From the NCBI RefSeq assembly GCF_056746865.1, contig NZ_CM163382.1: a stretch of DNA of 64,000 nt. One strand, 5' to 3'. How positions within the stretch are numbered: position 1 is the first letter of the stretch; every line of letters starts with the position of its first letter. Position numbers: made by a program. Shown in pieces: positions 21,001 through 24,000 of this stretch.

Positions 21001-24000
21001 CCCGACGTTTTTTGATTTTCCCCTGATATGATTTACGTGCCTGGCGAATTTTTGTTCCCACTGAACCTGCGTGAACACTTTGCCCTCAGCCATCCAGTAA
21101 TCCCGGAATGCAGCAAGTTCAGCAGGTGTAAATTCCGGTTCCGGCAGGGCCGTTCCCCACAGCGCAGCACGCCGTCGAAAATCCGGCGACGGATGCCAGC
21201 CATCGGTCATCGGAAATTTCCCAATAGGTTCACTCAGGCCATCCAGAAATGCAGGTTCTGCCACCTGCAACGGCGTACCGTTCGCTTCACTGGTCGGAGC
21301 ACCCTCGCGCACGTGCGCTATGTGTGGGGTTTTATATATATCTTCCTCTTCCTCTTCCTCTGGTAACTCCTTTTGTAACGCTGTTGGCGTTACTTTTTGC
21401 GTTACTCGTTTTCGATGCTCTGCCACTCTTCTATTCGTAAGTGCACGTTTTTTCGATGATTCTCCATTATGTCGCTCAAAGTTTGGAAGAATTAGTTTGC
21501 CGTCATGATAAGCAAGCCATCCGACGCTAATGAGGGCGTCAGCAAATCCTGTAATAAAAGCGAGTCTATCAAGTACTCCTTTTGTAACGCTGCCAGCGTT
21601 ACCGTCTATTGTTTGCTGGTCAGCCCATGCCCATATACGAACCAGCTTTCCAAGAACAGCATCTGGATCAATACCCAGAATTTCTGCTATCTGAAAAATT
21701 TCAGGTTTATCAGGAGTGATAACTTCAACCTTAATCCAGCTGCTTGCCATAGGTTTCCCCTCTTGCACTCTTTAGTGCACAAGCAAATTCATTACGATGG
21801 CGGTTGGCGCTATTCATTGCACATTCAACACATGTTCCGTTCAGAACATACCTTTCAGAGAGATGGCCGTGACGGCACCGCTTTCCTGTGAAATAGCGAT
21901 TTAACCCGGCTTTTGCGGCCTCCATTCTGGTTACTATCTTCAATTTTTCCGCCCCTTTTTGTTATTGATATTGGCTATTTTGCACAATTGGAAAATTTGA
22001 TCAACCAGATTTGGTTTTTTATTACCTTTGAGGTACGAATAGATATGAAAAGACCGCCGGGTGGCGGTCTACAGAGGGTTGTAGCTGGATATCATGAGTA
22101 GAAGAAGTATGCCAGTTCTGCTTTTGAGCGCAGCCATTGTCTTGTTTTACAGGCTTTAAAAAGCCCATTCATCAATACCTTACCTGGCATTTTGCGCTTG
22201 CCTGTTAAGTGAGTCTGGATATAGTGACTCGTCGTTCCGGCTTCCTGTGCGAAGGCTTCACGCTCATCCGGAGTAAGTGCAAGCCAGTGCTTTTTGAAAT
22301 CGAAATGTCCGTTATCGCTCATAGCTATTGCCTGATATTTATTTCAGATAATAAATATTCACCCATAAGGTAACAAAAATCAAGGATGGTTACCTATGAG
22401 GTGCATTTACCTGTTGGGTAATATTGCTTTAAATTGAATCATCTACTGATTCATATATGAGGCGATTTTCCAGAAAATGAAAAGTATCCAGGACGTCCGC
22501 AGGCAAAATCTCAACGACTTGATCGACCGTGAATTCAATGGTGTTCAGACGCGGATGGCAGAAAAACTTGGAACTCAGGCAAATCTGGTAAACCGCTGGG
22601 CTCTTGGCAAGAAGGTTATCGGCGACCAGGTTGCGCGAAAAATTGAAGCTGCCGCCAATAAACCCCGTAACTGGCTTGATATCGATCGCTCGCTTTCTCA
22701 GGAAGGTTTTCAGCCTGTCGGCCCAAGCGACATTGGTCAGCTGGCGGCTCACAACCTGGAACGCTGGATGAGCGAAAGCCGCGACCTTTCAACACAGGGA
22801 AAACTTCACCGCGCATCCGGCGTCGCCCAGGTGACAATCAGCCGCCTGTTAAACAATGAGGTCAGCGTTTCCATTTCCACCCTGGAGAATGTTGCATCCG
22901 CATTCGGGCGTCACGGATATGAACTACTGATTCACCCGCACGACCCTGCGACTATCAACTATGACCGCTCACGCTACGCATTGTTACCCGAAACCGAGAA
23001 AGCAAAGATCGAAAGTTACATTGAATTTGTCATCAACCAGAACGAAAAAAGCAAACAATAAAACTATATTTTTCAGTAAGTAAGCCGCCTCATGGCGGCT
23101 TTTTTATTGCCTATACTATTACCTAATGGGTAATTTTTTTAACTCATATCTATTGACATCAAACCAAATACGCATAATTATTACCTAAACGGTAACAGAC
23201 CGAGGTAACAAGTTATGCAGTGGAAAATCATCAACGGTTGGTACTGCGTTACTGCATGCGGATTCATGAGCTGGAAGTTCCGCACCTTACAGGAAGGCAT
23301 TAAGTGGGCTTTCGTCAGCAAAGAAGCTCGCGATGTGGCCAACGATAACGAGATATGGGAGTAGGTTAGCAAATGAGTGAATTATCAATCATCGAAATCA
23401 CACCAGACATGGCACCAAGAATTTACGTTGAAAAAGGGCTGGAAAAGTTTCTCGAGCAGATCCGTGAAGGTGTTAATGAAGTGCCTGACATTAGCACAGA
23501 CAAAGGCAGAAAGCGCATTGCATCTCTGGCTGCGAAGGTTTCAAGAAGTAAAACAGCGGTAGAAAAACCAGGACGTGATTATCTGAAACGCCTGAAAGAA
23601 CAGCCGAAAGTAGTTGAAGCAGAGTTACGACGCTTCGTAACCGAATGCGATCGGCTTCGTGATGAAGTACGCCGCCCACTCACCGAGTGGGAAAATGCTG
23701 AGAAATTACGCACTGAAGCACTGCAACAACGCCTGACAAATTTGCGAGCACTAGCTGACGTGATCGATCTCTCCGGAAACTACTTGCCATCATCTGATAT
23801 TCAGGAACGAATTCAAGAGGCTAAATCAGTAGCACTTGATGAAAGTTGGCAGGAGTACGCAGCAGAAGCTGGAGTAGCCAAGGATTCAACCATCAAGAAA
23901 CTGGAAGAATCACTCGCAGTAGCTCAAAAACGCGAGCATGAAGCCGCTGAGCTGGAGCGACTTCGCAAAGAAGCGGAGGAAAAAGCGCGCATTGAGCGAG

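Follow-up and report, generated by a model that had tools for sequence, protein, structure and literature searches.

The closest described relatives of the locus considered here are found in the phages phiV10 and epsilon15, where a small gene, gp39 of phiV10 (PhiV10p39, YP_512294.1) and gp37 of epsilon15 (NP_848245.1), is located between the repressor gene and the recombination (Rec) module. A gene occupying the same position was analyzed in a stretch of DNA of 64,000 nucleotides (NCBI RefSeq assembly GCF_056746865.1, contig NZ_CM163382.1), referred to below, at its full length, as the window. The window carries a prophage with an open reading frame (ORF) at 23215-23364, the translation of which is MQWKIINGWYCVTACGFMSWKFRTLQEGIKWAFVSKEARDVANDNEIWE, 49 amino acids. 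The ATG, the TAG and the peptide given for this ORF in a first-pass annotation of the window were found to be exact on re-reading of the sequence. All 49 residues of the window protein are identical in PhiV10p39 (tblastn, 100%), and epsilon15 gp37 is 79% identical to it. PhiV10p39 is annotated with 50 amino acids and Orf44 of Escherichia phage phiv142-3 with 53, versus 49 in the window, and these two proteins and epsilon15 gp37 are all labelled 'hypothetical protein'. So, the gene is already known, as it has been annotated and is classed in PHROG 898 as a conserved hypothetical, and it is not a new ORF.

Concerning the host element, its DNA shares 97.8% identity with that of phiv142-3, and about 98% with that of phiV10 and related phages. 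The prophage is an epsilon15/phiV10-like podovirus of the genus Uetakevirus, temperate and not of the lambda type. Nucleotide identity and the related records mean that the term 'lambdoid', used in the first-pass annotation, is strictly not applicable to it. As judged from the comparison of related sequences, its 49-codon ORF is a real protein-coding gene under strong purifying selection. The gene heads the repressor-controlled early-left operon of this Uetakevirus-type prophage, and, with a probability of about one half, its product would be an early protein-binding effector.

Coding evidence and distribution of the small gene

Taken by itself, an ORF of 49 codons is not above chance at this place, as 114 ORFs of at least 30 amino acids overlap a 9-kb span of the region. 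However, the ORF matched PHROG 898 over its full length with an expectation value (E) of 5.2e-38, residues 1-49 being placed on positions 1-49 of the 50 positions of the profile. The variation of codons was compared using seven divergent copies of the gene from phages of Escherichia coli, Salmonella, Enterobacter and Klebsiella. The pooled ratio of nonsynonymous to synonymous polymorphism (pN/pS) was 0.21 in the frame of the ORF, versus 1.92 and 1.19 in the two shifted frames, and within codons 1-38 the third positions made up 21 of the 38 variable columns. Several residues that never change are specified by different synonymous codons, such as Q2 (CAA/CAG), I6 (ATC/ATT), G8 (GGC/GGT) and G16 (GGA/GGG), while T13 and A14 display three synonymous codons each among the seven copies. 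When the window copy was compared to each relative, the ratio of nonsynonymous to synonymous substitution rates (dN/dS) was 0.02-0.09. The first-pass annotation had made its prediction depend on conservation of the reading frame in related prophages, and the frame is indeed kept: besides the low pN/pS, it is open in 13 of 13 diverse loci, including relatives that are only about 40% identical.

An RNA or DNA element was considered as the cause of the invariant N-terminus, and it was rejected because third codon positions vary and a scan of Rfam gave no match beyond chance, its chance-level matches falling on the terminator that precedes the gene. On the opposite strand, an antisense ORF of 63 amino acids (23181-23372, minus strand) overlaps the small gene, but it was rejected as the real gene because stops interrupt it in the five relatives that are most distant. 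As synonymous codons vary and the antisense frame breaks, conservation acts on the protein rather than on a nucleic-acid element. The Tyrion genome record calls an antisense gene instead of the small ORF (2905-3117 of locus L004), which implies that the antisense ORF is real; from the sequences compared, this annotation is probably wrong.

The 359 base pairs surrounding the gene are present in 557 of 5,426 complete E. coli genomes, where the NCBI Prokaryotic Genome Annotation Pipeline (PGAP) usually calls the ORF as a hypothetical protein. In PEC399, the closest fully covering complete genome among the matches listed, the features under the match do not include a coding sequence for the small ORF. 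An exhaustive profile search in 1.84 billion representative proteins yielded 19 clusters, among which P0029 (1,929 amino acids) was discarded as an artefact, being a translated tandem repeat. A second iterative search yielded 63 clusters at 90% identity, none of them with a functional name. The named members belong in every case to Enterobacterales (Escherichia, Salmonella, Klebsiella, Enterobacter, Hafnia, Serratia, Raoultella, Kluyvera and Scandinavium), and the small-protein family is narrow. Pfam gave no match either for the ORF or for 23 family members, NCBIfam and PADLOC gave none for the window protein, and a sequence search of the PDB with the latter returned chance matches only. The literature searched contained no mention of the protein, of its locus tags or of PHROG 898.

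Operon position, predicted fold and proposed role

The gene order around the small ORF is invariant down to about 40% identity: a repressor with two helix-turn-helix (HTH) domains, the small ORF, an optional coiled-coil protein (320-350 amino acids across relatives), an optional protein of ~95-101 amino acids, a RecE-like nuclease, RecT and AlpA/Xis. Each of the 14 diverse loci compared carries an operator palindrome directly upstream of the Shine-Dalgarno element and the ATG, so that the place assigned to the small ORF in the first-pass annotation, as the first cistron past a repressor-controlled, leftward-type promoter with its operators, is conserved. The operator still adjoins the small ORF in locus L014, despite the presence of two extra genes between the repressor gene and the operator. 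The window contains 14 copies of the operator motif TTACC-N5-GGTAA, versus 1.13 expected, a count not attained in any of 100 shuffles; the epsilon15 sites equivalent to the distal operator are annotated as repressor binding sites. The early-left promoter is kept in phiV10, Tyrion and BUCT554, and a GAGG-type element is present upstream of the small ORF in most relatives.

The junction with the next gene is equally constant. The next start lies between -8 and +8 nucleotides from the stop of the small ORF in 99 of 99 loci, often with an overlapping ATGA or GTGA, and the last five or six codons of the small ORF are purine-rich and form the ribosome-binding region of the next gene. The commonest form of the gene encodes 50 amino acids and ends in TGA, with the gp36-like gene starting 2 nucleotides later. 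The window carries another allele, found in 6 of the 99 loci, in which a change of GAG to TAG with respect to phiv142-3 ends the protein at residue 49, 8 nucleotides before a coiled-coil gene. This allele is four codons shorter than that of phiv142-3, it uncouples the ATGA stop/start overlap, and it weakens the ribosome-binding site of the coiled-coil gene, GGAGGAGG in phiv142-3 and GGAGTAGG in the window. That the 3′ end also has to bind ribosomes for the next gene explains why the C-terminal third of the protein drifts while residues 1-38 are tightly conserved.

Structure prediction with AlphaFold2 on an alignment of 40 sequences gave a predicted local distance difference test score (pLDDT) of 73.7, with three strands (residues 2-6, 9-14 and 18-22) followed by a helix (residues 25-47). 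This beta-beta-beta-alpha arrangement fits the conservation pattern of the family, with a core formed by G8, T13, G16 and S19, the aromatics W3, Y10, W20 and F22, and the segment E27-A-I-x-W31-A-F-x-T-K-x-A38. The product is thus predicted to be a soluble mini-domain of 49 residues, modelled as a three-stranded beta-meander, bearing the four aromatics, packed on the helix through W31-A32-F33. The matches obtained in fold searches were weak and promiscuous. The net charge of the family members ranges from -4 to +4 and their isoelectric points (pI) from 4.5 to 10.6, several being below 5; a basic surface is not conserved, K4 and K21 being the only semi-conserved basic residues, and the window protein contains six K/R versus six D/E. 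A membrane peptide was discarded, as the maximum 19-residue hydropathy was 0.57, and so was a metal site or a disulfide formed by Cys11 and Cys15, as these cysteines are replaced in distant members.

In the role proposed for the protein, the repressor bound at two TTACC-N5-GGTAA operators would keep the small gene silent in the lysogen, and inactivation of the repressor would make it one of the first genes transcribed, because the operators flank or overlap the promoter. Translation would proceed from its own Shine-Dalgarno element, and that of the downstream RecE-like and RecT genes would be coupled to the small ORF. This coupling is probable because the last codons hold the next ribosome-binding region and the next start lies no more than 8 nucleotides from the stop. 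We infer that the protein acts by binding another protein, and not as a DNA-binding or RNA-binding regulator or an N-type antiterminator; its action would be stoichiometric. The partner would most likely be a conserved protein of the enterobacterial host, and the role that of an early host-interference or accessory factor. The gene is kept in epsilon15, where other types of RecE and RecT, which the window proteins do not detect, take the place of those of the window, as well as where the gp36-like gene is absent (Hafnia and Serratia types, locus L018) and where the repressor falls to 43% identity. Its persistence through these changes favors a conserved host target slightly over a specific partner from the phage.

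Several observations weigh against this proposal. The small gene is always accompanied by the Cro-like gene, AlpA and a member of the repressor family, so that a phage partner is possible. The conservation of the small protein is similar to that of its Cro-like, AlpA and RecE neighbours, and is not exceptional. The structural model is only moderately confident (pLDDT 73.7), and AlphaFold2 run with 20 close sequences gave an all-helical model of low confidence (pLDDT 54). Finally, the literature searched contained no experimental sign of translation or of a phenotype.

Concerning the alternatives, the one that survives best, although with a rather low likelihood, is an accessory factor in recombination that would serve the downstream Rec module, similar to P22 Arf, which is a cofactor of 47 amino acids encoded immediately upstream of erf. 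The small gene heads an operon with a core of RecE-like nuclease and RecT, its stop directly overlaps the start of a 550-amino acid RecE-like protein in locus L018, and P22 arf, equal to it in size, also lies upstream of erf in an overlapping position. It was also counted in favor of this alternative that Arf and Abc1 aid recombination by mechanisms that are unknown (PMC12315714). However, when each of the named lambda or P22 proteins was compared by hhalign to the family alignment, the probability was 0.1% for Arf and 0.3% for Abc1, so that homology to Abc1 was discarded, as was homology to P22 Ral (0.1%). Moreover, one or two genes usually stand between the small ORF and the nuclease, and the gene is kept in epsilon15 next to RecE and RecT of other types, which argues that it is not matched to one recombinase.

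A little less likely than an accessory factor is a small DNA-binding regulator, with a three-stranded sheet and a helix as in the AP2 or integrase arm-binding type, that would modulate early transcription or excision. Such a function would suit a gene that adjoins operators within a regulatory region, but the family contains no conserved basic residues, its charge and pI values being those given above, Pfam shows no AP2 or arm-domain match, and the fold matches are the weak and promiscuous ones already described. Slightly below it comes a functional analogue of Kil, an early blocker of host cell division upon induction, suggested by the analogy with the kil genes of lambda and P22, which are likewise upstream of recombination genes and encode proteins of similar size (47-62 amino acids). 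The Kil-type proteins of different phages are not known to be related to one another in sequence, a point that was counted in favor of the analogy; hhalign gave probabilities of 0.2% for lambda Kil and 0.3% for P22 Kil, and the evidence is positional.

The constant junction with the next gene could also be read as that of a translational-coupling leader, a short cistron that loads ribosomes onto the next gene and whose peptide is dispensable. The closeness of the next start in the 99 loci, the ribosome-binding region contained in the 3′ end and the poor conservation of the C-terminal residues would agree with it. Nevertheless, the strong purifying selection on residues 1-38, seen both in the dN/dS values and in the excess of variable third positions, makes it quite improbable, because a cistron that counts only through being translated should not show amino acid selection.

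The least probable alternative, hardly to be considered from the sequences, is a protein of the lambda PL operon, either an N-type transcription antiterminator, to which only the first place in a PL-like operon points, or a CIII-type inhibitor of FtsH, suggested by the small size, the long helix and a superficially similar N-terminus (MQW..GW...C versus MQY..GW...C): for N, the family has no arginine-rich motif, its hhalign probability with lambda N is 0.1%, the predicted 5′ untranslated region of about 25 nucleotides is filled by the operator and the Shine-Dalgarno element, without room for a nut site, and there is no terminator-like site on the plus strand from 23215 to about 30,028; for CIII, the ORF and the 23 family members give no match to Pfam Lambda_CIII (PF02061), on which lambda CIII scored E 1.5e-30 as a control, BLASTP gives no alignment at E up to 100, hhalign gives 0.5% for lambda CIII and 0.3% for P22 C3, and the N-terminal half is predicted to be beta-sheet. 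The resemblance to CIII was therefore rejected. The first-pass annotation had reported that an Arg-rich, N-type motif was lacking, which is borne out by the net charges and the hhalign result, and it had mentioned antitermination as a possible role, which is unlikely in view of the short 5′ untranslated region and the lack of a terminator-like site on the plus strand up to about 30,028. Host interference, its other suggestion, is possible.

Returning to the early protein-binding effector, a bolder extension of it is held only tentatively, with odds clearly under even. It would be a previously unrecognized class of early effectors of 49-50 residues, with a minimal beta3-alpha fold, that neutralizes a conserved enterobacterial protein and is restricted to epsilon15/phiV10-type phages of Enterobacterales. 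If this were true, the class would be carried by about 10% of the complete E. coli genomes, and its target would be a component of cell division, DNA repair or anti-phage defence, hit in the first minutes after derepression. Otherwise, little changes, as the gene was already annotated and no new principle is suggested. What has been added is firm evidence of coding, the constant place as operator-proximal first cistron, the double use of the 3′ end as a ribosome-binding region, and the exclusion of homology to N, CIII, Kil and Arf. Its presence in approximately one tenth of the complete E. coli genomes, and in prophages of Salmonella, Klebsiella, Enterobacter, Hafnia and Serratia, makes it reasonable, at little cost, to include it in screens for small proteins of phages that act on host functions.

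Neighbouring genes and other features of the locus

The features of the locus are summarized in Table 1. The counterparts of the repressor gene are labelled as repressor in the records of phiV10, phiv142-3 and epsilon15, and the phiV10 record marks the hairpin 3′ of the repressor gene, equivalent to that of the window, as a putative rho-independent terminator. A Cro-like gene is located divergently at 22322-22092.

Table 1. Features of the locus around the small gene, in window coordinates (strand: +, plus;., not stranded).
Feature	Position	Strand	Basis or detail
Prophage repressor, 194 amino acids, two HTH domains, related to SPC32H/epsilon15 Rep	22477..23061	+	Pfam HTH_3 E 1.2e-9; PHROG 8 transcriptional regulator
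Intrinsic terminator of repressor transcript	23082..23108	+	Hairpin and T-run at 23082-23101; 8-bp stem, 6 G-C pairs
Distal operator palindrome TTACCTAATGGGTAA, upstream of -35 hexamer	23119..23133	.	TTACC-N5-GGTAA motif
Sigma-70-like early-left promoter: TTGACA (23153), 17-nucleotide spacer, AATTAT (ends 23181)	23153..23181	+	10/12 consensus positions
Proximal operator palindrome TTACCTAAACGGTAA	23181..23195	.	Overlaps -10 hexamer and predicted transcription start
Shine-Dalgarno GAGGT, 8 nucleotides before ATG	23202..23206	+	Read from sequence
49-amino acid gene (phiV10 gp39 / epsilon15 gp37 family, PHROG 898)	23215..23364	+	ATG 23215, TAG 23362-23364
Purine-rich 3′ end of small ORF (TGGGAGTAGG), ribosome-binding region for next cistron	23356..23365	+	Junction comparison
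344-amino acid coiled-coil protein, PHROG 1376, function unknown, second cistron	23373..24407	+	PHROG match
101-amino acid gp36-like protein, PHROG 856, function unknown	24409..24714	+	PHROG match, phiV10 annotation
Recombination module: RecE-like PD-(D/E)XK nuclease 24711-25532, RecT 25529-26410	24711..26410	+	Annotation of relatives

Operator-like TTACC-N5-GGTAA palindromes were also found outside the immunity region, at 12823-12837, 15967-15999, 20058-20072, 20120-20134 and 22022-22036, typically just upstream of the starts of minus-strand genes. They include a tandem pair at 15967/15985, and another pair inside the 117-bp gap between DUF1064-like and replication-P-like genes. The distribution of the motif points to secondary sites, for the repressor or for the Cro-like protein, in the early-right and other operons. 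The repressors of the epsilon15 and phiV10 types (locus L003 versus the window) are 43% identical, and their operators contain the same TTACC/GGTAA half-sites, so that hetero-immunity of the two types is not obvious from the operators. In locus L014, the two extra genes between the repressor gene and the operator (3211-3919) are a DNA polymerase III theta-like gene and an ORF of 60 amino acids. Their placement is like that of lambda rexAB, and by this analogy they could possibly be morons on the repressor transcript, expressed in the lysogen.

The coiled-coil gene, an insertion that in the window separates the small ORF from the gp36-like gene, is without counterpart in phiV10 and epsilon15. 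Counterparts occur in phiv142-3, in enteropathogenic E. coli (EPEC) E2348/69 and in the Serratia-type relatives at 50-58% identity; the window product shows a weak, low-complexity match of TolA type. As to the gp36-like neighbour, a 94-amino acid protein encoded upstream of a RecE-like gene in locus L011 (4240-4524) bears a precomputed Pfam match to GamL (PF28165, phi80 anti-RecBCD protein). The label 'GamL' was not transferred to the window protein, as it occurs in that one distant locus only, the match was not reproduced with local Pfam, and BLASTP of the 101-amino acid window protein against the 94-amino acid protein gave no similarity. The recombination genes of related loci give Pfam matches to DUF3799 and RecT.

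Comparison with described phage systems

Homology to DUF2188 or DUF1508 (YegP) was raised by the motif FxTxxEAIxxA and by the fold matches, one DUF2188 protein being among those obtained in BFVD. The DUF2188 and DUF1508 test sequences were validated on Pfam (E 2e-32 and E 5e-45, respectively), and hhalign against them gave 0.2%, with no Pfam match of the family, so that homology is not supported. What is shared with DUF2188 and DUF1508/YegP/UPF0339 is the predicted beta3-alpha topology. A likeness in topology to AP2-type domains may exist as well, but the basic DNA-contact residues of these domains are missing from the small-protein family.

Among the small proteins of well-described phages, lambda CIII, P22 C3 and the Kil proteins of lambda and P22 have 47-62 amino acids, are encoded early-left and upstream of the Rec genes, and bind host proteins. 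Nevertheless, none of them gives an hhalign probability above 0.5% with the small protein, which is predicted to be beta-beta-beta-alpha and not all-helical. P22 Arf is likewise a small early-left cistron directly upstream of the recombination module and overlapping it; it differs from the present protein in sequence (hhalign 0.1%), and the small gene accompanies different recombinase types. Lambda N and P22 gp24 are, like the small gene, the first past the left operator and promoter, although the present protein lacks an arginine-rich motif and its operon shows neither a nut site nor, up to about 30,028, terminators that would have to be overridden. The order of repressor gene, terminator, operators with promoter, and small gene is topologically equivalent to that of lambda cI, terminator, OL/PL and first gene.

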